Of a stretch of DNA of 64,000 nucleotides, positions 7,466 through 47,085 are shown piece by piece; positions within the stretch are counted from its first letter, which is position 1; each line of letters begins with the position of its first letter. A program made the translations under genes and the position numbers. The stretch is from the IMG/VR virus record IMGVR_UViG_3300033076_001145, positions 144,635 through 208,634 of that record. One strand, given 5' to 3'. Under the pieces are notes generated by a model. That model was not told the origin of the DNA. It did not search any database and saw only the letters and a program-made list of their open reading frames with translations. The stretch comes from a virus. Lineage: Duplodnaviria; Caudoviricetes.

Positions 7466-7726
7466 TCAAATATATGTATCCTCAATCCCCTCAATAAATC
7501 GTAACAATCGTTGTCTTTCACCTTCAGTTAATTCCCCATCACTTTCGATTTCTTCTCTTAACATTTCCAAACTCTGTAATGAACTTTGAATACATCCTGC
7601 CAATTCGTCATCAACATTTTGAATGTATTTACCATACATTTCATAGTTAGACTTTTCCCCTTCAGAGATTACTTTATTCACAATCTTTATTAATTCAGTT
7701 TCAGTAAGTTTTATTGTTTTACTCAT
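7466..7726 (-). CDS. hypothetical protein with KLTE leader
   Basis: MSKTIKLTETELIKIVNKVISE. Confidence 0.7.
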   Translation of the reverse strand: MSKTIKLTETELIKIVNKVISEGEKSNYEMYGKYIQNVDDELAGCIQSSLQSLEMLREEIESDGELTEGERQRLLRFIEGIEDTYI

Positions 7727-7760: not shown

Positions 7761-8168
7761 TCACTTGGATGGTAGTCTCAACCTTCCTTCAAAAGGGTTA
7801 ATGTAAAATTTGATATTTGTAACTTTCTTTTTGAGGGTGTGCTCAACCCATTTACCAATAAATTCTTTAGAGTCATTGTGTCCCATAGAATAGAAAGAAG
7901 AAATTTCTTTGATTAAACCATCACCGATAAAACACGAACCGTCGTCTTTATCATATCTAATTTGAGCATATTTGTCACTTTTTGAATTGACAAAATAAAT
8001 TCTATTTTTTTCTTTAATCTGAATGAAGTCCTGATTGTTTAAGTATTCAAATACTGAATTATCTAATTCTGACTCTGACTGAGGAATTGTGTCTCCACCA
8101 CCTTTTTTAATAATTCTTTTTACTAGACTTAGTAAATCTGATTCTGTCAATCTAATTACCTTTTTCAT
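7761..8168 (-). CDS. DFIQI paralogue family member with degenerate repeat-spacer tail
   Basis: YLNNQDFIQI..FVNS..YAQIRYD..WVEHTLKKKVTN; also has the KKVIRLTESDL leader. Confidence 0.8.
   Translation of the reverse strand: MKKVIRLTESDLLSLVKRIIKKGGGDTIPQSESELDNSVFEYLNNQDFIQIKEKNRIYFVNSKSDKYAQIRYDKDDGSCFIGDGLIKEISSFYSMGHNDSKEFIGKWVEHTLKKKVTNIKFYINPFEGRLRLPSK
7771..7847 (+). CRISPR. degenerate CRISPR-like unit: partial repeat, 29-nt spacer, 36-nt repeat
   Basis: GGTAGTCTCAAC, spacer 7783-7811, GATATTTGTAACTTTCTTTTTGAGGGTGTGCTCAAC. Confidence 0.5.
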
Positions 8169-8225
8169 GTTATTATAAATACAGATAAAAACAAAAAACC
8201 CCTCAACAAGGAGGGGTTTAAGTTA

Positions 8226-9239
8226 TTATTTTACAATCTTCGTGGTATATAATTTACCTGAGTCATCATTAATTAGAATGACATAGGTTCCCTGACTTAG
8301 ATTTTCGGAATTAATTGTCATCATGTTTGTTGTGTATTTGTTTTGATAAACACATCGTCCATCAACTGACATAATCTTAATGTTTCCGTTATTAGATGGT
8401 GTAACCACATTAATATTATCCATCACAGGATTTGGACATACCTTAACATTATTGGTCATTGTTTCTTCAACACCAACAGTATAACTATCAACAACACTCA
8501 ATGTCCATTCAGTCATAATACCACCAGGATACCAACCTGTTGAGTCAATGGTGAATGTTAAACAAGTATCAGCAAAACATCCATCAAATGAATAAGCCCA
8601 TACACAGATTTGATATGTTCCAACACCTCCATAAGTTGTTGTTGGGAATGCAACATTTGCTGAGTCACCATTACCAAAATTCCAAGTATATCCAATGCAG
8701 TTTGAAGATTGGTTAATCAAAAAGATTACATTATCTTCGATTACAACTGAATCAGAAGAAACAAAAGACATATCCAAGTATGGGGTCGTTTCAAGTTGTC
8801 CGTCACAGTTATTATCAATACCATCACACATTTCCCATGCTCCGGGATATGTATTTGGGTTAAAAGCATCACAATCATATTCATCATTCCAACCATCATT
8901 ATCACTATCAATACCAGTAACCAAATCAATTGAGTATTCATTAACTGCTCCGAAGATAACAATACCACCATCGCATTGGGTCATCCCAACACAATTGGTC
9001 GCACATAGATTAACATAAACACTATTACCAACCACAGGAACCGATGTTGTGTAAACACCTGATGGGTCGGAAGTAAAAACCAATTCACCTGTTGTTTGGT
9101 TTAAGGAGTCAATATACATACCTGTAACGGTATATGGACAATTTGTATCACCAATAACGGTCAAGTTAATTGGGAATTGAGAAAACACATTAAGTGTTAG
9201 GATGCTCATAAGAGCGAAAAGAAAAGTTTTTAGTTTCAT
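8226..9239 (-). CDS. secreted protein with PKD-like domain and T9SS type A C-terminal sorting domain
   Basis: Signal peptide, CDGIDNNCDG metal-binding motif, WNFGNG, C-terminal PNP..G.Y....KIVK. Confidence 0.8.
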   Translation of the reverse strand: MKLKTFLFALMSILTLNVFSQFPINLTVIGDTNCPYTVTGMYIDSLNQTTGELVFTSDPSGVYTTSVPVVGNSVYVNLCATNCVGMTQCDGGIVIFGAVNEYSIDLVTGIDSDNDGWNDEYDCDAFNPNTYPGAWEMCDGIDNNCDGQLETTPYLDMSFVSSDSVVIEDNVIFLINQSSNCIGYTWNFGNGDSANVAFPTTTYGGVGTYQICVWAYSFDGCFADTCLTFTIDSTGWYPGGIMTEWTLSVVDSYTVGVEETMTNNVKVCPNPVMDNINVVTPSNNGNIKIMSVDGRCVYQNKYTTNMMTINSENLSQGTYVILINDDSGKLYTTKIVK

Positions 9240-9347
9240 AATTTGTTTTTTTAAAGTTTAGACAAAGGTAATACAAATTAAGTTGATTGTAAAATAAAAA
9301 CCCCCACATTTTCTGTGAGGGTTTAAGTGAAACCTTGTTATTATTTT

Positions 9348-10142
9348 TTAGAATTTTGTTCCGCAGTGTGGACAGAATTTATGATTATCTTTCTTTCTCT
9401 TACTTCCACAATTTGTGCAATAAAGAACATTCACCTCTTTTGCTTCAACTGGCTTTTCTGACATTGGCATTAGTCTCCAAGTTGAATATGACGATGGGAA
9501 AGAATTAAAATCCATATTCACTGATGTAAATTCCTGATTTGAACTTCCACCTTTTTCAACACGACCTGTTTCTTTAAACCTGTCAGTTGATAATGACTTC
9601 TTTAGATTTTGAGAAGTGTTATAATCAACATTATTATTTAAGTTATAGGATGTGTTGGTGAAATAACTATTATTTCCCGATGTTAAGTTTGTTGTGGTGT
9701 TATAGAGTTTAATATTACCACCAGTAGTATTGTAACCACCATAATATCCATAATCACCGTGTTCATTTGTAAAAGTTATACTTCCACCATAAGGATTTTC
9801 TTCATAGAACTCAACCTCAACAACTCCGTTGTTTTTGATTGCCTCTTGAACCTCTTTGGATTTGGCATTGACCTCATAGGTTTCAAACTTGAACTTTCTT
9901 GCTTCGTCCAAATACCTTTCAAGAAAAACCCTTTGACCTGGTCTTAATACAACTCCACCACCACCGATGTAGTTTCCGTTAATTTTAAGTTTTGCTAAAA
10001 CTGAATTTTGTTGGGGGTTGAAGATTTCAACTTCAAATTCATCCCCATCTTTTAGATAAACGACACTTCCATTTTGTTTTAGTCGTTGTTTCCCTACTGT
10101 AATGAAAGCAGTAGGATTCTTTTTAAATGATTTGTAATACAT
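9348..10142 (-). CDS. hypothetical protein with C-terminal zinc ribbon
   Basis: CTNCG...FCPHCG. Confidence 0.75.
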   Translation of the reverse strand: MYYKSFKKNPTAFITVGKQRLKQNGSVVYLKDGDEFEVEIFNPQQNSVLAKLKINGNYIGGGGVVLRPGQRVFLERYLDEARKFKFETYEVNAKSKEVQEAIKNNGVVEVEFYEENPYGGSITFTNEHGDYGYYGGYNTTGGNIKLYNTTTNLTSGNNSYFTNTSYNLNNNVDYNTSQNLKKSLSTDRFKETGRVEKGGSSNQEFTSVNMDFNSFPSSYSTWRLMPMSEKPVEAKEVNVLYCTNCGSKRKKDNHKFCPHCGTKF

Positions 10143-10254
10143 TTTTTTACCTTATTTTATTGTTTATGTTTATTGAACCCCACTTCGTTGGTATTTCTCC
10201 AACTCAACTGTCTCAAAGGACAGGTGGACCTCAGCAACAAGGTTTCATTAATAA

Positions 10255-10605
10255 TTATAAGGTAATTTGTTTTTGTGTAAAGATTAATTGGGGGGTATTC
10301 TCAACCATCAGCTCCTTTGTTGGAAATGATATCGGGGTATTTGTAACCTTCATTTGGGTGGTATTCTCAACCCATCGTCCAATAACTTTTTCAGAATCAG
10401 AGCGTTGTAAAGAAAAGTAGGAATAAATTTCGTTAGTTAAATTAAAATCAATAAAACACCAACCATCATCTTTATCAAATCTTATTCGAGCGTATTTATC
10501 ATTCTCTGAATTTACAAAACAAATTTTATCATTACCCATATCAATCTGAATGAAGTCCTGACTATCCAAATAAGAAAATATTACTCTTTCTAAATGTTTG
10601 TCCAT
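10255..10605 (-). CDS. DFIQI paralogue family member with repeat-spacer tail
   Basis: MDKHLERVIFSYLDSQDFIQI...WVENTTQMKVTNT. Confidence 0.85.
   Translation of the reverse strand: MDKHLERVIFSYLDSQDFIQIDMGNDKICFVNSENDKYARIRFDKDDGWCFIDFNLTNEIYSYFSLQRSDSEKVIGRWVENTTQMKVTNTPISFPTKELMVENTPQLIFTQKQITL
10288..10371 (+). CRISPR. CRISPR-like unit: partial repeat, 30-nt spacer, 36-nt repeat
   Basis: ...GGGTATTCTCAAC, spacer 10306-10335, GGTATTTGTAACCTTCATTTGGGTGGTATTCTCAAC. Confidence 0.65.
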
Positions 10606-10619
10606 GATTATAAATATGA

Positions 10620-10916
10620 TTAATAACCAACAATTGGACTAGCAACCTCCACATTAATAGATTCAATTCCGAGTTTATCTTCAATCCATTTATTGATTAC
10701 ACTAATGGAATCCCCATAATCTAAAGAAAAGAATTTGCTGACTTCTTCGGCCAAATCATAGTGTATTGTGCACCATCGGTCTTTTGGGAGGTATTTAATC
10801 TGAGCAAATTCATCATCTTCTGAATTAACAAAATATATCCTATACTTCATTTTAATTACAACAAAGTCCTGTCCATCCAAATAAGAAAATATTACTCGTT
10901 CTAAATGTTTGTCCAT
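10620..10916 (-). CDS. DFIQI paralogue family member without repeat
   Basis: MDKHLERVIFSYLDGQDF; divergent C-terminus. Confidence 0.85.
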   Translation of the reverse strand: MDKHLERVIFSYLDGQDFVVIKMKYRIYFVNSEDDEFAQIKYLPKDRWCTIHYDLAEEVSKFFSLDYGDSISVINKWIEDKLGIESINVEVASPIVGY

Positions 10917-10936
10917 GATTATAAATACATTAGTTA

Positions 10937-11080
10937 GGTATTCTCAACAGAGCAGTGGAAACGTTTTCAGAACTATAGGTGTTTGTGACCTTCATTTGGA
11001 GGGTATTCTCAACAAGAGATGAATAGCGAATACCTTCCCGCTTGGGTGTTTGTGACCTTCATTTGGAGGGTATTCTCAAC
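10937..11080 (+). CRISPR. CRISPR-like mini-array: partial repeat plus two identical 36-nt repeats and two spacers
   Basis: GGTGTTTGTGACCTTCATTTGGAGGGTATTCTCAAC at 10978-11013 and 11045-11080; spacers 10949-10977 (29 nt) and 11014-11044 (31 nt). Confidence 0.75.
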
Positions 11081-11317
11081 CCATTTACCAATAACTTGTT
11101 CAGAATCAGAGCTTTGCAAAGAAAAGAAAGAAGAAATTTCTTTAACTAAATTAGTATGAATAAAACACCATCCATCATCTTCGTCATATCTAATTTGAGC
11201 GTATTCGTCACCTTCTGAACTAACAAAAAAAATTTTATCATTACCCATATCAATCTGAATGAAGTCTTGGCTATCCAAATAAGAAAATATTACTCGTTCT
11301 AAATCTTTGTCCATCAT
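11009..11317 (-). CDS. DFIQI paralogue family member with repeat-spacer tail
   Basis: MDKDLERVIFSYLDSQDFIQI...WVENTLQMKVTNT. Confidence 0.85.
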   Translation of the reverse strand: MMDKDLERVIFSYLDSQDFIQIDMGNDKIFFVSSEGDEYAQIRYDEDDGWCFIHTNLVKEISSFFSLQSSDSEQVIGKWVENTLQMKVTNTQAGRYSLFISC

Positions 11318-11832
11318 AACTTAATCCCAGTATTATATATGGTTTCCCAATTATTTTTCTCACAATAATCCAAAAAGTCCTTTGGTGAATATCTATATGA
11401 CTCCTCAATCCCATATACCCATGAAACAAACTCAGAGCAATACATCTTATCCTGTTCATGGTTCAATGGTTTTTTATTCCACTTACCAGTTAATAATTCA
11501 ATCGGTTGTTTGATAATTAATCCCTCAAAGTCATAAGCCGTTAATCCAACTTTGCTCATGGCTTTAACCGCAATTTTCTTTTCAGCAATTACCTTTGGTC
11601 TTCTTTGGATGATGAAGTTATATTGGTATTCTTTAAGCCAGTTTTCAAATGGTTTAACATTAACTCCATTATCCTGAGCATCAATGATATATGGTTCACC
11701 CCATATCCAAATGAAAAGAGCTGTGTGATTTATTTCAGACTTTGTTGCCCATCTTATGGCTCTACTCAACCAACTTTTTCCACGACAATGTAACACATCA
11801 CCGGTTTTTAATTCATCTATATTCAAACTCAT
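11314..11832 (-). CDS. permuted papain-like NlpC/P60 (YiiX/YebB-like) enzyme
   Basis: LKTGDVL..NHTAL..YD..YCSEFV (His before Cys). Confidence 0.75.
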   Translation of the reverse strand: MSLNIDELKTGDVLHCRGKSWLSRAIRWATKSEINHTALFIWIWGEPYIIDAQDNGVNVKPFENWLKEYQYNFIIQRRPKVIAEKKIAVKAMSKVGLTAYDFEGLIIKQPIELLTGKWNKKPLNHEQDKMYCSEFVSWVYGIEESYRYSPKDFLDYCEKNNWETIYNTGIKL

Positions 11833-11914
11833 AATGATAAATATTGGAATATATAATAAAAAAGTCTTTCCATTTATTCAAACATAATATATTTATTTAT
11901 TAAACAATTAAATT

Positions 11915-12526
11915 TTGGAAATTTCATCAGAAGTTATAGTTGCGTTTATTACAGGTGTAGTTGGGCCAACATCTATCATGTTTTTAAAACATTACCTAAC
12001 CGCAAAGAAAAAGAAACCAGATTTGGTTCATGAGACCTTAAAGGTTAGCGAACTTGTCAATTCAAAGATTGAACACATTAAAGAAGAATTCAATGCCGAT
12101 AGAGTATGGATAACTCAATTCCATAATGGTGGGAACTTCTATCCAACAGGAAAATCAATGGCAAAGTTCAGTATCATTTATGAAACAGTTCATCCCGGTG
12201 TTAATTCAATTCAATCAAACTTCCATAACATTCCAGTTAATTTGTTTTCAAAGTCAATCAATGAATTATTACAAAATGATATAATTGAAATCCCTGATTT
12301 TAAAGATGAAAAAATTTCCACATTTGGTTTAAAATATGTCGCAGAAGAGAACGGATGTAAGTCAGGTTACCTTTTCGCAATTAAAACAATTGATGGAAGA
12401 TTTATTGGAACCTTAGGTTTGGACTATACAAAGAGAAAGACAAACTTAGATATGGAATCAATTAATCATTTACAAGTCCACGCATCTTCTTTGGGTGGAG
12501 TTTTAATGACTCACTTAAATCAATAA
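11915..12526 (+). CDS. N-terminal TM plus GAF-like domain protein (holin T-like candidate)
   Basis: Hydrophobic N-terminus; ADRVWITQFHNG...FIGTLGLDY. Confidence 0.55.
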   Translation: MEISSEVIVAFITGVVGPTSIMFLKHYLTAKKKKPDLVHETLKVSELVNSKIEHIKEEFNADRVWITQFHNGGNFYPTGKSMAKFSIIYETVHPGVNSIQSNFHNIPVNLFSKSINELLQNDIIEIPDFKDEKISTFGLKYVAEENGCKSGYLFAIKTIDGRFIGTLGLDYTKRKTNLDMESINHLQVHASSLGGVLMTHLNQ

Positions 12527-12532
12527 GATTAA

Positions 12533-12886
12533 TTAGAAACTCTTTTTCCACTTTAATAAGTAGAGACCTCTTTCTTTGTTGAGAGGTTCAAAACTTATTC
12601 TAAAGTTGTCGTTTAACTGAGCATAAACAGGATAAATTGGAAATTTCCATCCTTCGGTTTCTATATGGAATCCCGCCATTCCAACAGGACTATTTTTAAT
12701 TTTATCTATAAAACTTTTTGGAGTCTCCTCTTTACCGAAATTAACTTTAAGTTGGGTTTTAAAATCGTCAGGGATTTGAATAGTTGAAATTTTATTAATA
12801 GGTCCCTTATCAGTTATTTGTTCTTCAATAACTCGTTTAACAATCTTAACCAAATCTGATTCTGTCAATTTAATAACCTTTTTCAT
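12533..12886 (-). CDS. hypothetical protein with KLTES leader
   Basis: MKKVIKLTESDLVKIVKRVIEE. Confidence 0.7.
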   Translation of the reverse strand: MKKVIKLTESDLVKIVKRVIEEQITDKGPINKISTIQIPDDFKTQLKVNFGKEETPKSFIDKIKNSPVGMAGFHIETEGWKFPIYPVYAQLNDNFRISFEPLNKERGLYLLKWKKSF

Positions 12887-12955
12887 ATTAAATAAATATA
12901 TCAATGTTTTTCTTTTTTATTCCATAAATTTTATATCTTAGCCAAAATTATAACA

Positions 12956-13621
12956 ATGGAACTAAACTATCCCAACTTAACGGAAGACCAAAAATCAAAG
13001 ATTGACAAGTTCGTTTCTGACTTGGAAAAGAAATGTGCTGAAAACAATGTTGAGTTGTTTCTTCCCAACACACCTGGCGTTCAATACCCAGGTTTGGACA
13101 CCCAAACCAATGGTTATTTTGATTCAAGAAAACCACTTCTTGCTTGTGCAACAGGTAAGGAACTTGATAAGTGGTTGTTAATCTTAATTCACGAGTCATC
13201 ACATATGGACCAGTTTTTAGAAAAGGTTTCAGTATTTGATGAGTCAATTGGATTAGATGAAACATTTCAATGGATTGGTGGTCTTGAAACTCCTGACTTT
13301 GACAAGATTGATAGAGAAATCACATCAGGTATTGCCGTTGAGGTTGATTGTGAGAAAAGAACCGTTGAGAAGATTAAAGAATACGGATTGGAGTTTGTGG
13401 TTGGGATTGATGAATACATTCAAAAATCAAACGCATATGCTCTCTTTTACCTATGGATGAGAAAGAACAGAAGTTGGTATAAGATTGGATTTGAGCCATA
13501 CAATGTTAAATCCATTTATTCCAAGATGCCAAAAACATTTGATGTTGATTATTCAACATTGACAGAAGATATGACTGAAGCATTTGACGAGTTGTTAGTA
13601 ATGTCGGATGGGGTTAAATAA
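12956..13621 (+). CDS. hypothetical metallopeptidase-like protein
   Basis: IHESSH plus downstream EVDCE. Confidence 0.65.
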   Translation: MELNYPNLTEDQKSKIDKFVSDLEKKCAENNVELFLPNTPGVQYPGLDTQTNGYFDSRKPLLACATGKELDKWLLILIHESSHMDQFLEKVSVFDESIGLDETFQWIGGLETPDFDKIDREITSGIAVEVDCEKRTVEKIKEYGLEFVVGIDEYIQKSNAYALFYLWMRKNRSWYKIGFEPYNVKSIYSKMPKTFDVDYSTLTEDMTEAFDELLVMSDGVK

Positions 13622-13668
13622 AAAACCCCATCCTTTAGGGATAGGGTAAATCTCTTTTTTAGATTTGA

Positions 13669-14022
13669 TTACTTGGTGTAAGTTCTTAGACAATGTGCCG
13701 CCCAAGCCGCCGCTCCAAGAAAGATTGGCATCAATAGACCTGCTCCACCGAACATTGCAATATGAACCGCAACCGCTCCTGACATTACAGATGAAAGAAC
13801 CAACGCTCCATAAACAGATGTTCTTGGGATACAAAGGGCAATTACACCAGCAACTTCCATAACTCCAACAAGTGCCATGTAAGGTAACATGTTCATTGCA
13901 GTAAAGTTAGTGGTCATAGCCTCGCTTCCCATAATCTTTGACAATCCGCCCATTCCGAGCATAAAGGTTACGATTACTGTAAGCAACCAACCTAAGTTTT
14001 TAAGTGTTAAATAATTTTTCAT
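13669..14022 (-). CDS. DoxX-like membrane protein
   Basis: Four hydrophobic helices, GLSK..GVMEVAG..PRT..GAVAVH. Confidence 0.8.
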   Translation of the reverse strand: MKNYLTLKNLGWLLTVIVTFMLGMGGLSKIMGSEAMTTNFTAMNMLPYMALVGVMEVAGVIALCIPRTSVYGALVLSSVMSGAVAVHIAMFGGAGLLMPIFLGAAAWAAHCLRTYTK

Positions 14023-14066
14023 ATTCCAAGTATAGGATATGAACTTTACAATGTCAATTGATTTTT

Positions 14067-14153
14067 ATTTGGAGGGTATTATCAACGGATTGAAAAATTG
14101 CCTTTGCTCAATGCCATGGTGTTTGTGACCTTCATTTGTAAGGTATTCTCAAC
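14067..14153 (+). CRISPR. CRISPR-like unit: partial repeat, 31-nt spacer, 36-nt repeat
   Basis: ATTTGGAGGGTATTATCAAC, spacer 14087-14117, GGTGTTTGTGACCTTCATTTGTAAGGTATTCTCAAC. Confidence 0.7.
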
Positions 14154-14378
14154 CCACCTACTGATAACTTGTTCAGAATCAGAGCGTTGCAAAGAAAAGT
14201 AATAAGAAATTTCTTTAATTAAATCCAAACCAATATAACACAAACCATCATCATATCTAATTTGAGCAAATTCATCATTCTCTGAATAGGCAAAATAGAT
14301 ACTATCATATTTTTTAATCTGAATAAAGTCCTGACTATCCAAATAAGAAAATAATACTCTTTCAAAATCTTTGTACAT
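14082..14378 (-). CDS. DFIQI paralogue family member with repeat-spacer tail
   Basis: FSYLDSQDFIQI...WVENTLQMKVTNT. Confidence 0.85.
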   Translation of the reverse strand: MYKDFERVLFSYLDSQDFIQIKKYDSIYFAYSENDEFAQIRYDDGLCYIGLDLIKEISYYFSLQRSDSEQVISRWVENTLQMKVTNTMALSKGNFSIR

Positions 14379-14391
14379 GATTATAAATATA

Positions 14392-14721
14392 TTAGTTGGG
14401 TATTCTCAACCACTTGTCAATATTCATATACGCATCGGTGGTTTTTGTAACTTTCATTTTTAAGGTATTCTCAACCCACCTACTGATGACTCTTTGGGAT
14501 TCGTCTCGTCCTAAATTAAAGAAAGAAGAAATTTCTCTATTTAAATCGATATTAATAAAACAAACACCTCTATCTTCATCATATCTAATTTGAGCAAGGT
14601 CGTCACTTTCTGAATTAATAAAGAATAAACTTGTGTCATTACCTGTAATAATAAAATCCTGATTGTCAAGATACTTAAATATTACTTTATCAAATTGTGA
14701 TTCGGTTATAAGGTATTTCAT
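14392..14721 (-). CDS. DFIQI paralogue family member with repeat-spacer tail
   Basis: MKYLITESQ leader; YLDNQDF...WVENTLKMKVTKT. Confidence 0.85.
   Translation of the reverse strand: MKYLITESQFDKVIFKYLDNQDFIITGNDTSLFFINSESDDLAQIRYDEDRGVCFINIDLNREISSFFNLGRDESQRVISRWVENTLKMKVTKTTDAYMNIDKWLRIPN
14398..14475 (+). CRISPR. CRISPR-like unit: partial repeat, 29-nt spacer, 36-nt repeat
   Basis: GGGTATTCTCAAC, spacer 14411-14439, GGTTTTTGTAACTTTCATTTTTAAGGTATTCTCAAC. Confidence 0.6.
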
Positions 14722-14733
14722 ATAAGATAAATA

Positions 14734-15051
14734 TTAATAAGGAACCATTAATATGGGTACCTCATTTCTTAAATAACTTTGAACAACCATTACATCACTT
14801 ATTTTAAATTTGTGTTTAATCCACAAACCTATAATTTTTTGAGAATCTTCTTTAGATATAGAAAAGAAAGAAGAGACTTCCTTACACAAATTATCAGACA
14901 TCCCAACCCAAGGGATATCATAATCAAATCTAATTTGAGCATATTCATCACCTTCTGAATTAACGAAGTATATTTCCTCCTCCCCATCAATCTGAATGAA
15001 GTCCTGACTATCTAAATAAGAAAATATTACTCTTTCTAAATCTTTGTCCAT
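14734..15051 (-). CDS. DFIQI paralogue family member without repeat
   Basis: MDKDLERVIFSYLDSQDFIQI; divergent C-terminus. Confidence 0.85.
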   Translation of the reverse strand: MDKDLERVIFSYLDSQDFIQIDGEEEIYFVNSEGDEYAQIRFDYDIPWVGMSDNLCKEVSSFFSISKEDSQKIIGLWIKHKFKISDVMVVQSYLRNEVPILMVPY

Positions 15052-16133: not shown

Positions 16134-17165
16134 TTATTTAATAATTCTTGTGGTATAAACCTTACCTGAGTCATCGGTCATAACAATTACATATGAACCA
16201 TTACTCAATAGATTACCATCAATCTGAATTTGTTTTTGGTTGAAGTTCTGACTAAACACAACCTTACCATCAACTGACATAATCTTTACATTAGTATTAT
16301 TAGATGGCGCAGAAATGTTAATTACCTCACCGATTGGATTTGGCCAAACCTTAATGTTGTTGGTCAATACCTCAACACCTGTTGTATAATCAGGCACAAT
16401 ATTCAAAGTATATTCTGACATAATTCCACCAGGGAACCATCCTGTTGAGTCAATTGTGAATGTCAAACAAGAGTCAGTCATACATCCATTAGGTGAAAAA
16501 GCATACAAACAAGGTGTATATGTCCCAGGTGAATCGTAGATAAATGATGTATATAACGATAGGCTATCTACACCGCTCGCCAATCCCCAGTCCCATCCCC
16601 AGAAATTTGCGCCAGTCGTTTCACAAACAACATAGATTGTGTTTGGTTCAGATACCAATGAGTCAGGAACAAAATACATACTGATTGTTGGTGGGGTGTT
16701 CAATACTCCATCGCAGTTATTATCAACACCATCACAAGCCTCGAGAGCACCGGGGTAGGTAAATGGGTCATAATCGTTACAGTCATTACCTCCAGATTCA
16801 ATTGATAGGTATCCATCATCATCCATATCATCAAAAATAGGCATTACAATATCAAATGTGGTAACCGCACCAGGTGTTACAATACCACCGATACATTGTG
16901 CCGTTCCCTGACAATCAATCGCACATATTGAAACATATACATCGGTACTATCAATAGGTGGCGCCGAAGCAATCCAAACCCCATTTGGACTATAAGAAAA
17001 CATCAAAGGTCCTGTCCAAGTACTATCATCCAATGAGTAATCCCCAACTACGGTAACCGGACAATTTGGATTTTCACCAACAACATAAACATTGATTGGG
17101 AATTGAGAGAACACATTAAGTGTTAGAATGCTCAATAGAGCAAAAAGAAAAGTTTTTAATTTCAT
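16134..17165 (-). CDS. T9SS type A sorting-domain protein, paralogue of 8226-9239
   Basis: Near-identical signal peptide MKLKTFLFAL, CDGVDNNCDG, WPNP..G.Y..RIIK. Confidence 0.8.
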   Translation of the reverse strand: MKLKTFLFALLSILTLNVFSQFPINVYVVGENPNCPVTVVGDYSLDDSTWTGPLMFSYSPNGVWIASAPPIDSTDVYVSICAIDCQGTAQCIGGIVTPGAVTTFDIVMPIFDDMDDDGYLSIESGGNDCNDYDPFTYPGALEACDGVDNNCDGVLNTPPTISMYFVPDSLVSEPNTIYVVCETTGANFWGWDWGLASGVDSLSLYTSFIYDSPGTYTPCLYAFSPNGCMTDSCLTFTIDSTGWFPGGIMSEYTLNIVPDYTTGVEVLTNNIKVWPNPIGEVINISAPSNNTNVKIMSVDGKVVFSQNFNQKQIQIDGNLLSNGSYVIVMTDDSGKVYTTRIIK

Positions 17166-17719: not shown

Positions 17720-17910
17720 CAAACCATCTACGCTAACCGTAGTTGTAGATTTTACTGATGGTTGGTTCCCCATCACCTGTTATGTGTGCACCATAGAGCA
17801 GGGTCCATCACAGTATACCTTGGGTCATTTTACACTTCATTTGTGGTAGCTACTCCACGGTGAAGCCAAGGTCTCTTTCAACGGTGCTAATCCGTCTTCT
17901 GTAAGGTTTG
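17720..17910 (-). ncRNA. unidentified structured RNA downstream of tRNA-Tyr
   Basis: Nested helices ACCTTGG/CCAAGGT, CTTCA/TGAAG, GTGG/CCAC, TGATGG/CCATCA, CTACG/CGTAG; terminator follows. Confidence 0.45.
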
Positions 17911-21109: not shown

Positions 21110-21236
21110 ATAGTCAGGACAGGATTCGAACCTGTAACAGAGTATTCTTAGTTGCGAACAACGACTTTCTCCTTTCTGACATTGTAAGCCTTATACCAAT
21201 GATATCAATAGCGTCTACCATTCCGCCACCTGACTA
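21110..21236 (-). ncRNA. family A tRNA-like scaffold 4
   Basis: Same frame, unique insert. Confidence 0.8.
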
Positions 21237-21350
21237 TTTTGTTTTTACAATAAATAATGCCGTATTAACATACCTAATATGAATGATAATATCGTCATTA
21301 AAATAAACATTGTTTTAGATATTTCCTTATGTTTCATATTTCTAATTTTA

Positions 21351-21507
21351 GTAGTCAGGACAGGAATCGAACCTGTATAGGTGTCAGTCATAAACTGATT
21401 GCTTCTACTGTTATAGAGTTCTTTTGCTCCACCGAACCTAAACATCTTACGTTCACTACCTCACCAGGTTTCCGATGTTACGTCTAACCAATTCCGCTAC
21501 CTGACTA
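21351..21507 (-). ncRNA. family A tRNA-like scaffold 5
   Basis: Same frame, ~105-nt insert. Confidence 0.8.
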
Positions 21508-28098: not shown

Positions 28099-28193
28099 GC
28101 AGTCAGAACAGGATTCGAACCTGTAAATTAGAAACCCTCTTCTAATTCCAAACCTCCGTGAATGGAGCGTTTACCAATTACGCCACCTGACTA
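28099..28193 (-). ncRNA. family A tRNA-like scaffold 7
   Basis: Same frame; hairpins CTCC/GGAG (6-nt loop) and AATTAGAA/TTCTAATT. Confidence 0.78.
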
Positions 28194-29826: not shown

Positions 29827-29937
29827 GTAGTCAGGACAGGGTTCGAACCTGTAATTTGAATATAGAGGATATAGTTTTCATACTAGTTCTATAACATGAT
29901 ACTCCATTTAATCGTCTACCATTCCGCCACCTGACTA
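29827..29937 (-). ncRNA. family A tRNA-like scaffold 12
   Basis: Same frame, unique insert. Confidence 0.8.
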
Positions 29938-30680: not shown

Positions 30681-30775
30681 GTAGTCAGAACAGGATTCGA
30701 ACCTATACGTTAGCTTTACATTTCGTTGACTAACCGCACCTTGAAGCGAGCGTCTTCCATTCCGCCACCTGACTA
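30681..30775 (-). ncRNA. family A tRNA-like scaffold 15
   Basis: Same frame; CGC-TTCAAGGT-GCG (8-nt loop) and GTTAG/CTAAC arm. Confidence 0.78.
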
Positions 30776-46193: not shown

Positions 46194-47085
46194 GAAGCCT
46201 GAGATTACAGCTTTGATTGAGAACCTTTGGAAGGATTATTGTTTCCCTTCGTATCCACTTCCTTTTGAGAAGTATTTCTCAGTGACGGTCTTTTAAGTTT
46301 ACCACTCTTTGAGGTTTGAATTACTCTATCAGTACTCAACTCTTTCCGAGGTTGCCACCCCAGTTCGTCCTTGCGGGATTAAAGGTCTTTCGTAACAATA
46401 CACATTGACTTGGGGTCTTTGTGTGCAATGAACGGCTCATTACTATGTAGTCACCTTTCACTCAAACCTGATGGACACTTTTCCTTAATGTATTTTAATT
46501 AATTGGATAATTTAAATTCCATTTAGTTTTGTGTCGTAGATGTGTCAGAGTAGTGGTCCACCGTAAGCTCCGTTTCCTTTTGAGAAACGAAATACTAAAC
46601 TACTCCGTGAAGTGTCCCCACCTCCATATTCCAAGATTACTTCATAAAGAGACCTTGGTAGGTCTGACTTTAGGGGTAGTAGCGACACCACTCGTTCTCC
46701 ACCTTACCTTTCGGTTTTAAGTCCTCTATCATATTGGGACCCGCAATAGTGTGATTGGATAATCACATTTCTTACAGAGTTCCTATGGGTTATTCTTATT
46801 ACTCTTCCGAGTTCAACCTGACAATCTACTTTGCCAGGTCACCCTACCATTTTCCCTACGAAGTTATCCTCGGTACCGAAGGTTTGGTGATATCCCACTT
46901 GTGTACTTGAGTTCAATTTCCCTTACGGGATTTCAAACCGCAGTCTCCTCAACACGGGGGAGACCACTTTATCCTACTTTCGTAGTTTATTTAAGGACCA
47001 TACACGGCCCATTATCGTTTATCAGATTAAATGTCTCATAATCAACCCGAAGGTCTCATAATCAACTACTGAATGGATAATCTAT
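46194..47085 (-). ncRNA. large (~890 nt) ornate ncRNA candidate
   Basis: No credible ORF, many GNRA/UUCG-capped hairpins, tandem promoters and boxA-like motif upstream, terminator at 46160-46184. Confidence 0.65.

Follow-up and report, generated by a model that had tools for sequence, protein, structure and literature searches.

The 64,000-nucleotide stretch of DNA analysed here (the window) comes from the very end of a 208.6-kb virus record of the Caudoviricetes in IMG/VR (IMGVR_UViG_3300033076_001145, positions 144,635 to 208,634; CheckV completeness 71%). Between positions 7,761 and 15,051, the window carries seven minus-strand paralogues of the DFIQI protein family, and five of these seven genes end in a 36-nt unit that is followed by a unique segment of 29–31 nt and then by a cut-off copy of the same unit, an arrangement resembling the repeats and spacers of CRISPR arrays. 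The repeat constitutes the last 12 codons of the gene, directly 3' of a conserved Trp codon, and its ends read GTTG...CACC in the gene's sense and GGTG...CAAC antisense to it. An initial annotation, made by a model from the sequence letters, had described this anatomy, and its paralogue count, spacer lengths and coordinates were correct to the base. Here we describe these arrays, compare them with real CRISPR arrays, and weigh how they may have arisen.

All genes, repeats and spacers of the arrays are given on the minus strand. Paralogue 1 (7761..8168, 135 aa) consists of a leader-like N-terminal extension, the DFIQI domain, and the tail KFYINPFEGR followed by LRLPSK. Its full repeat (7812..7847) codes for VEHTLKKKVTNI, and its 29-nt spacer (7783..7811) is translated and shifts the next repeat copy, the cut-off terminal repeat at 7765..7782, to the +1 frame, where it is read as LRLPSK and a stop. 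In paralogue 2 (10255..10605, 116 aa), the full repeat (10336..10371, VENTTQMKVTNT) is followed by a 30-nt spacer read in frame as PISFPTKELM (10306..10335) and by the cut-off copy (10288..10305). Paralogue 4 (11009..11317, 102 aa) bears a two-spacer array composed of the gene-proximal full repeat (11045..11080, VENTLQMKVTNT), the newest spacer (11014..11044, 31 nt), a second full repeat (10978..11013), an older spacer (10949..10977, 29 nt), and a terminal copy of which 12 nt are kept (10937..10948), just upstream of the start codon of the next gene. The protein stops at the TGA that opens the second repeat, which is untranslated and identical to the first, so that identical 36-bp copies flank the 31-nt insert at 10978–11080. 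Paralogue 5 (14082..14378, 98 aa) has its full repeat at 14118..14153, a 31-nt spacer at 14087..14117 and a cut-off copy at 14069..14086. Paralogue 6 (14392..14721, 109 aa) ends in TDAYMNIDKW followed by LRIPN, with the full repeat at 14440..14475, a 29-nt spacer at 14411..14439, and a cut-off copy read as LRIPN and a stop at 14399..14410. The other two family members are paralogue 3 (10620..10916), without a recognisable repeat, and paralogue 7 (14734..15051), also without a repeat, which retains an ...LMVPY end.

The six window spacers (29, 30, 29, 31, 31 and 29 nt) are mutually unrelated. Besides the exact 36-mers at 10978–11013 and 11045–11080, a copy with 2 mismatches was found at 14118–14153, and the number expected by chance is 0. 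The 3' 18-mer of the unit, with up to 4 mismatches allowed, occurs in 11 copies on the + strand, grouped at 65–67-nt spacing (7765/7830, 10288/10354, 10931/10996/11063, 14069/14136 and 14393/14458). Outside the window, the same record (G000) holds two more arrays of this kind, at 102280 and 102625 (family members at 102034–102696), each with a repeat, a spacer and a cut-off repeat, and a hidden Markov model of the DFIQI family detects 15 members in the whole phage record.

The initial annotation had likened the unit to the repeats of Bacteroidota type VI-B systems, whose effector is Cas13b. Species genomes were scanned with a degenerate pattern derived from the 3' half of the unit, with two copies required at array spacing. 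The scan returned 93 loci, nearly all in Bacteroidota, which are true arrays with a 66-nt period. Most of these loci adjoin a 1100–1230-aa open reading frame (ORF) with HEPN motifs, and the NCBIfam Cas13b model recognises the ones from Bergeyella zoohelcum and Flavobacterium columnare at E-values of 1e-235 or better. The type VI-B repeat features named in the initial annotation held for the 93 loci, which show 36-nt GTTG...CAAC repeats, 30-nt spacers in 84%, and an adjoining Cas13b. A profile was then made from 54 distinct real VI-B repeats, and every 36-mer of the 208-kb phage was scored on both strands. The window units are the top-ranked 36-mers of the phage in the exact register, with 23.5 of 36 positions compared with a background of 9.6 (standard deviation 2.3), and a second repeat type of the same family (G000 105673–107023) ranks next, though it had no part in the choice of the pattern. 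The likeness of the phage units to type VI-B repeats is therefore real.

This likeness extends to the layout of the arrays. Real VI-B arrays, when read from GTTG to CAAC, have their degenerate end at the 3' side, and 7 of 48 complete real arrays were scored as having a terminal repeat that keeps only its first 20–25 nt. The phage arrays read in the gene's sense comprise the gene body, the full repeats, and a terminal copy that keeps only its first 12–22 nt. The phage layout fits a real VI-B array only in the gene's sense, opposite to the direction chosen in the initial annotation, and in this direction the gene stands in the leader's place.

To follow the arrays beyond the window, 74 related contigs carrying the unit (12 viral and 62 from lake metagenomes) were analysed; all 62 metagenome matches have the phage layout. 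These contigs hold 85 distinct arrays with 116 distinct spacers and up to five repeats per array. Repeat identity averages 34.5/36 within arrays, where 26 of 46 pairs are identical, compared with 29.9/36 between arrays, even on one contig, and this uniformity is the signature of a neighbouring repeat being duplicated at each insertion. The spacers are all different and mostly 28–33 nt long (3 of 116 are shorter), with a mode of 29 nt rather than 30 nt. The spacer beside the cut-off copy is common to contigs L029 and L046/L071, and another is common to L042 and L064, while the gene side differs in both cases. In L030, the repeat variants grade away from the gene. On contig L043, compared with L029 and L054, the spacer of one paralogue's array is joined directly to the spacer of the neighbouring paralogue's array, which indicates a deletion by recombination between repeats of different genes.

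The second repeat type, GGTGGAAGAGGTCTTAAATCATAAGGTATCTACAAC in the gene's sense, lies about 38 kb before the window (G000:C1:105673-107023, L195). It forms two arrays of about 8 repeats each, in which all spacers are exactly 30 nt and read through as modules of 12 + 10 residues. This repeat has no hairpin or stem at all, yet it forms arrays.

The composition of the spacers differs from that of the phage. The mean guanine-plus-cytosine (GC) content of the 128 spacers of both repeat types is 42.8%, compared with 32% for the phage (p = 1e-28), and that of the 116 spacers of the main type is 42.4%. These 116 spacers have on average 3.38 of 5 frames open, compared with 2.89 in composition-matched shuffles (z 5.6); a value of 3.38 is what fragments of protein-coding DNA should give. 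The spacers have the look of protein-coding DNA from outside the phage. No second copy of any spacer was found in the phage itself or in the 74 related contigs, which gave self matches only. The search of the window spacers against phages, proposed in the initial annotation, gave no viral match: the six spacers have no match in INPHARED phages or in PLSDB plasmids, and the cores of five of them have no exact match among 2.9 million IMG/VR viral contigs. The bacterial genomes searched for donors were 401 of Flavobacteriales, 301 of Flavobacterium, 301 of the family of a Brumimicrobium metagenome-assembled genome, and 16 of one genus. These searches gave only two near matches. One of them, a 25/30 match between the window spacer at 10306–10335 and a porin-like gene, was not counted, as about 0.2 such matches are expected by chance. 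The other belongs to the sister arrays of this genome, where one spacer codes for VRASFANQG, the active-site motif of aldehyde dehydrogenase, and agrees with a bacterial aldehyde dehydrogenase gene at 26 of 30 positions; the differences include one synonymous and one conservative codon change.

The inserted DNA is also read as protein. Frame 0 of the repeat encodes VENTLQMKVTNT, the +1 frame encodes LRIPSK followed by a stop, and the +2 frame opens with an immediate TGA, so the length of the newest spacer sets the end of the protein: a 29-nt insert leads to LRIPxK and a stop in the +1 frame, a 30-nt insert to a second VENT... module, and a 31-nt insert to the immediate TGA. Among gene-side spacers of the 29-nt class, 47 of 48 have no stop in the frame that is translated and lead to an L(R/K)IPxK end, compared with a null rate of 71% from the other frames (p = 1.3e-6), while the 30-nt class shows no such enrichment (15 of 25). 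Spacers of 29 nt make up 48% in the phage arrays compared with 10% in real arrays (p = 2e-25). Paralogues that lack the repeat still end in L-x-[LIV]-P about 10 residues past the domain. Selection keeps the tail readable. In addition, rare codons are nearly fixed in the repeat (GTC 59%, AAC 84% and ACC 95%, compared with 8%, 27% and 15% genome-wide), including codons 8–12, which are beyond the reach of the +1 frame, and therefore selection acts on the nucleotide sequence as well.

The structure of the DFIQI domain was predicted, as the initial annotation had advised, and the result was a confident model (predicted local distance difference test score 94.5) with three helices and a four-stranded sheet, but no known fold or family was matched. 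In this model, the repeat accounts for the close of the last helix plus a short tail. The protein belongs to no Pfam or PHROG family, the model has no Foldseek match in PDB (best E 0.58), a wide VIA search gave only Z < 5, and the ESM Atlas returned only viral hypothetical clusters.

We consider it probable, at roughly 60%, that these are genuine CRISPR-type arrays which grow from the 3' ends of a phage gene family and are filled by a Cas1-Cas2-type integrase. The last 36 bp of the gene would serve as the repeat and the gene body would occupy the leader's position, and the integrase would insert 28–33 bp of non-phage protein-coding DNA at the repeat, duplicating it. This integrase is presumed to come from the host and to be like the one that, in Flavobacterium, supplies Cas1-less VI-B arrays with spacers in trans, and the donor DNA is likely to be the host chromosome. 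In F. columnare, Cas1-less VI-B arrays gain spacers through the type II-C Cas1-Cas2, and the targets of the newly gained VI-B spacers were divided relatively evenly between the bacterial genome and the phage (Hoikkala et al. 2021, PMC8092290). The newest insert would become the tail of the protein, the next repeat copy would close the frame according to insert length, and selection would retain both the inserts that preserve the tail and the acceptor sequence itself. The initial annotation had listed a Cas1-Cas2 integration substrate among its options; exact repeat duplication, foreign coding-like spacers, shared spacers beside the cut-off copy, and the cut-off terminal repeat speak for that option. 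The upkeep of the acceptor and a repeat built for reading in three frames suggest that the insertion is tolerated or exploited by the phage. It is possible, and we propose it only tentatively, that spacer capture has been turned into peptide writing, in which the repeat is tuned for three frames and captured host DNA gives the paralogues a new 10-residue segment between constant motifs, as a diversity generator driven by Cas1-Cas2.

Several observations weigh against this explanation. The alignment to Cas13b repeats, also advised by the initial annotation, placed the units at the top of the genome, but they are only ~65% identical to known repeats, and no bacterial array with the unit's 3' 13-mer at array spacing was found in 185,579 species genomes. 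For the spacers of the main repeat type, the searches yielded no protospacer at all, so that the donor, the protospacer-adjacent motif and the orientation of insertion are putative. An AT-rich leader with conserved boxes was not seen upstream of the first repeat, where coding sequence (...VIGRW) abuts the repeat; this 3' region of the gene is unlike real VI-B leaders and does not account for a preference of insertion for the gene side. The pairs of contigs that speak for polarity are few, and arrays also recombine with one another. Spacer turnover among related phages, which the initial annotation had suggested as a check, was seen in the form of different spacers and gene-side differences, but some spacers are old, inherited and diverged, as the one of paralogue 6 (14411–14439) matches a copy in contig L016 at 86%. 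Lastly, two measures favour the strand antisense to the gene: profile identity is slightly higher there (23.5 vs 21.6 of 36), and the central stem pairs better (5.17 vs 4.73 of 6 pairs). The identity does not decide the orientation because the two values are close and real VI-B repeats are ~55% identical to their own reverse complement.

These two strand preferences agree with the option favoured in the initial annotation, in which the + strand is transcribed and the spacer with its 3' full repeat yields a Cas13b-type CRISPR RNA (crRNA) that retargets or saturates host Cas13b. On this strand, every spacer precedes a full repeat, those of one-spacer arrays included, as Cas13b needs (PMC13187072), and the ACCTTC/GAGGGT stem is indeed fully paired, with the help of G-U pairs, only there. 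The observation on G-U pairs holds, but the changes behind it are one-sided changes of Lys/Arg codons; the compensatory pairs, none of them significant, are too few to test for covariation. Real repeats are predicted to form a closed hairpin with a terminal stem at -9 to -11 kcal/mol (z -2.5 to -3.4), whereas the + strand RNA of the phage unit forms the central stem only, without a closing terminal stem, at -6.9 kcal/mol (z -0.4), no better than shuffles. The cut-off copy would be at the wrong end for a VI-B array read on the + strand, the minus strand carries every gene and terminator in the surroundings of the arrays, and no prominent + strand promoter was found there. Furthermore, the hairpin-less sister repeat builds arrays all the same, no viral protospacers were found (INPHARED; IMG/VR for five cores), and selection on the translated tails is not accounted for. 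Given the gene-sense layout, the lack of a closing terminal stem and the lack of a viral spacer match, we regard RNAs that hijack or poison Cas13b from the + strand as unlikely. It was also considered that the mRNA itself acts as a decoy, much like an RNA anti-CRISPR, in which the full repeat, without the inhibitory leader hairpin that real arrays have, loads host Cas13b into useless 'extraneous crRNA' complexes and the arrays are perhaps a side effect. Extraneous crRNAs do compete for Cas13b, and overexpression of one cut defence ~1000-fold (PMC13187072); the occurrence of at least 7 copies per genome in co-directional operons and the nucleotide-level conservation of the unit beyond coding need are consistent with such a role. 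However, the sense RNA barely folds (-2.5 kcal/mol, z +0.6), a C-A mismatch disrupts its stem in about half of the variants, and identity to real repeats is ~60%. In the predicted folds, the phage unit forms a closed Cas13b-type hairpin on neither strand, and the decoy is, in our view, just as improbable as the + strand crRNA.

The arrays could also owe nothing to CRISPR machinery and represent a linker of hypervariable sequence that separates two conserved protein motifs and is shuffled among paralogues by gene conversion or recombination, with the VI-B likeness due to convergence or old capture. The paralogues without arrays share the layout, with 12 residues, then roughly 10 variable ones, then an L-x-[LIV]-P end; there are recombinants between arrays (L043 compared with L029), and the inherited spacers also fit this explanation. 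It is nevertheless very unlikely, as untranslated downstream repeats have not diverged from the translated one, nothing else in the genome resembles VI-B repeats as closely as the units do, and the inserts are 28–33 nt, mutually unrelated, GC-richer than the phage and coding-like, while recombination among paralogues cannot import foreign DNA.

Set beside known systems, the phage arrays resemble Bacteroidota type VI-B arrays in the 36-nt repeat, the GTTG/CAAC-like ends, the central stem, the ~30-nt spacers, the uniform repeats within an array, and the terminal repeat cut after its first ~20 nt; many new VI-B spacers of F. columnare come from the bacterial chromosome, which is comparable to the non-phage coding appearance of the spacers here. 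They differ in that they lie in a phage, a protein gene replaces the leader and the repeat is the gene's last 12 codons, and also in the lack of any cas gene found, the ~65% repeat identity, the lack of a closed hairpin, the dominance of 29-nt spacers, and the translation of the newest spacer. Rare off-target 'neo-CRISPR' integration by Cas1-Cas2 was reportedly seen by Nivala, Shipman and Church in 2018 in E. coli chromosomes under overexpression. The common point is that, outside a CRISPR locus, an insert the size of a spacer stands between the copies of a duplicated sequence resembling a repeat; the present case differs in being recurrent and conserved across many phages at a site apparently maintained by selection. 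Huge phages are reported to carry compact cas-less arrays in intergenic positions (Al-Shayeb et al. 2020); they share with our case the large phage and the arrays without adaptation genes, but those arrays lie outside reading frames and the present ones are part of the reading frame. Viral mini-arrays have repeats identical to the host's and spacers mostly against related viruses (review PMC11656645). The phage arrays are similarly short and cas-less, with 1–4 spacers in a virus, but their repeat is coding and was found in no bacterial array, and their spacers have no match among the viruses searched. Known solitary repeat units, or RNA anti-CRISPRs, are non-coding and stand behind a promoter (PMC11656645; PMC10651486), and a survey of viral solitary repeats lists none for type VI (Camara-Wilpert et al. 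2023, PMC10651486); here, by contrast, the unit is made up of a gene's final 12 codons, within an operon, and spacers come after it.

Regarding the phage and its host, the record contains 28 transfer RNA (tRNA) genes, a GOLLD RNA and a freshwater-1 RNA, and it therefore belongs to a large lake phage. The GOLLD RNA is full-length (326 bits; window 46196–46607, minus strand), and the freshwater-1 RNA lies at 17750–17812 (minus strand). Amid the 28 tRNA genes, over-long tRNA-like genes or ones with an odd anticodon loop were noted at 21111–21506, 28099–28192, 29828–29936 and 30681–30774 (minus strand), which ARAGORN reports as 'tRNA-???' and for which the Rfam tRNA matches are weak (93–155 nt). 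Two paralogous secreted proteins (8226–9239 and 16134–17165, minus strand) share one and the same signal peptide and end in a sorting tail of the Bacteroidota type, which supports a Bacteroidota host. The spacers of the 93 real VI-B loci, searched with the aim of identifying the host, did not match the phage, and no cultured phage carrying the DFIQI family was found. The initial annotation had seen no cas gene in the window, and this held for cas13b and cas1 in the whole record. A search for cas13b by tblastn and the NCBIfam profile gave no match in the records G000, G001 and G002, which are 31–76% complete, although the profile was silent in control genomes too; cas1 was likewise not found in the three related records, including the present one, at the same completeness.

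Some features near the arrays were also recorded. A gene for a small four-helix membrane protein (13669–14022, minus strand) lies between paralogues as the last gene of its operon, with a terminator at 13625–13647. An N-terminal segment, MKKVI(K/R)LTESDL..., is common to otherwise unrelated small proteins (8103–8172, 12821–12890 and also 7466–7726; DNA identity 79%), and it is fused ahead of the DFIQI domain in the gene at 7761–8168. Sigma-70-like sites (TTGAGA-18-TATAAT, 11/12 match) at 10918–10947 and 14380–14409 (minus strand) are formed by the cut-off repeat and the AT-rich stretch before the next gene; they were set aside as promoters, as only 1 nt separates the -10 box from the start codon that follows it and the promoters of Bacteroidota are of other kinds.

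A literature search found no paper describing arrays inside phage genes. CRISPR arrays are usually seen as the non-coding memory of cells; in this phage, viral genes for proteins seem to be subject to the same insertion chemistry, with the inserted DNA translated and under selection. Repeat look-alikes in phages thus need not be RNA decoys. If host Cas1-Cas2 acts on these genes, phage genomes would be spacer acceptors, which bears on how arrays are born and how adaptation chooses its targets. If the phage exploits the insertion, hypervariable proteins could arise by a new route, next to that of the diversity-generating retroelements.

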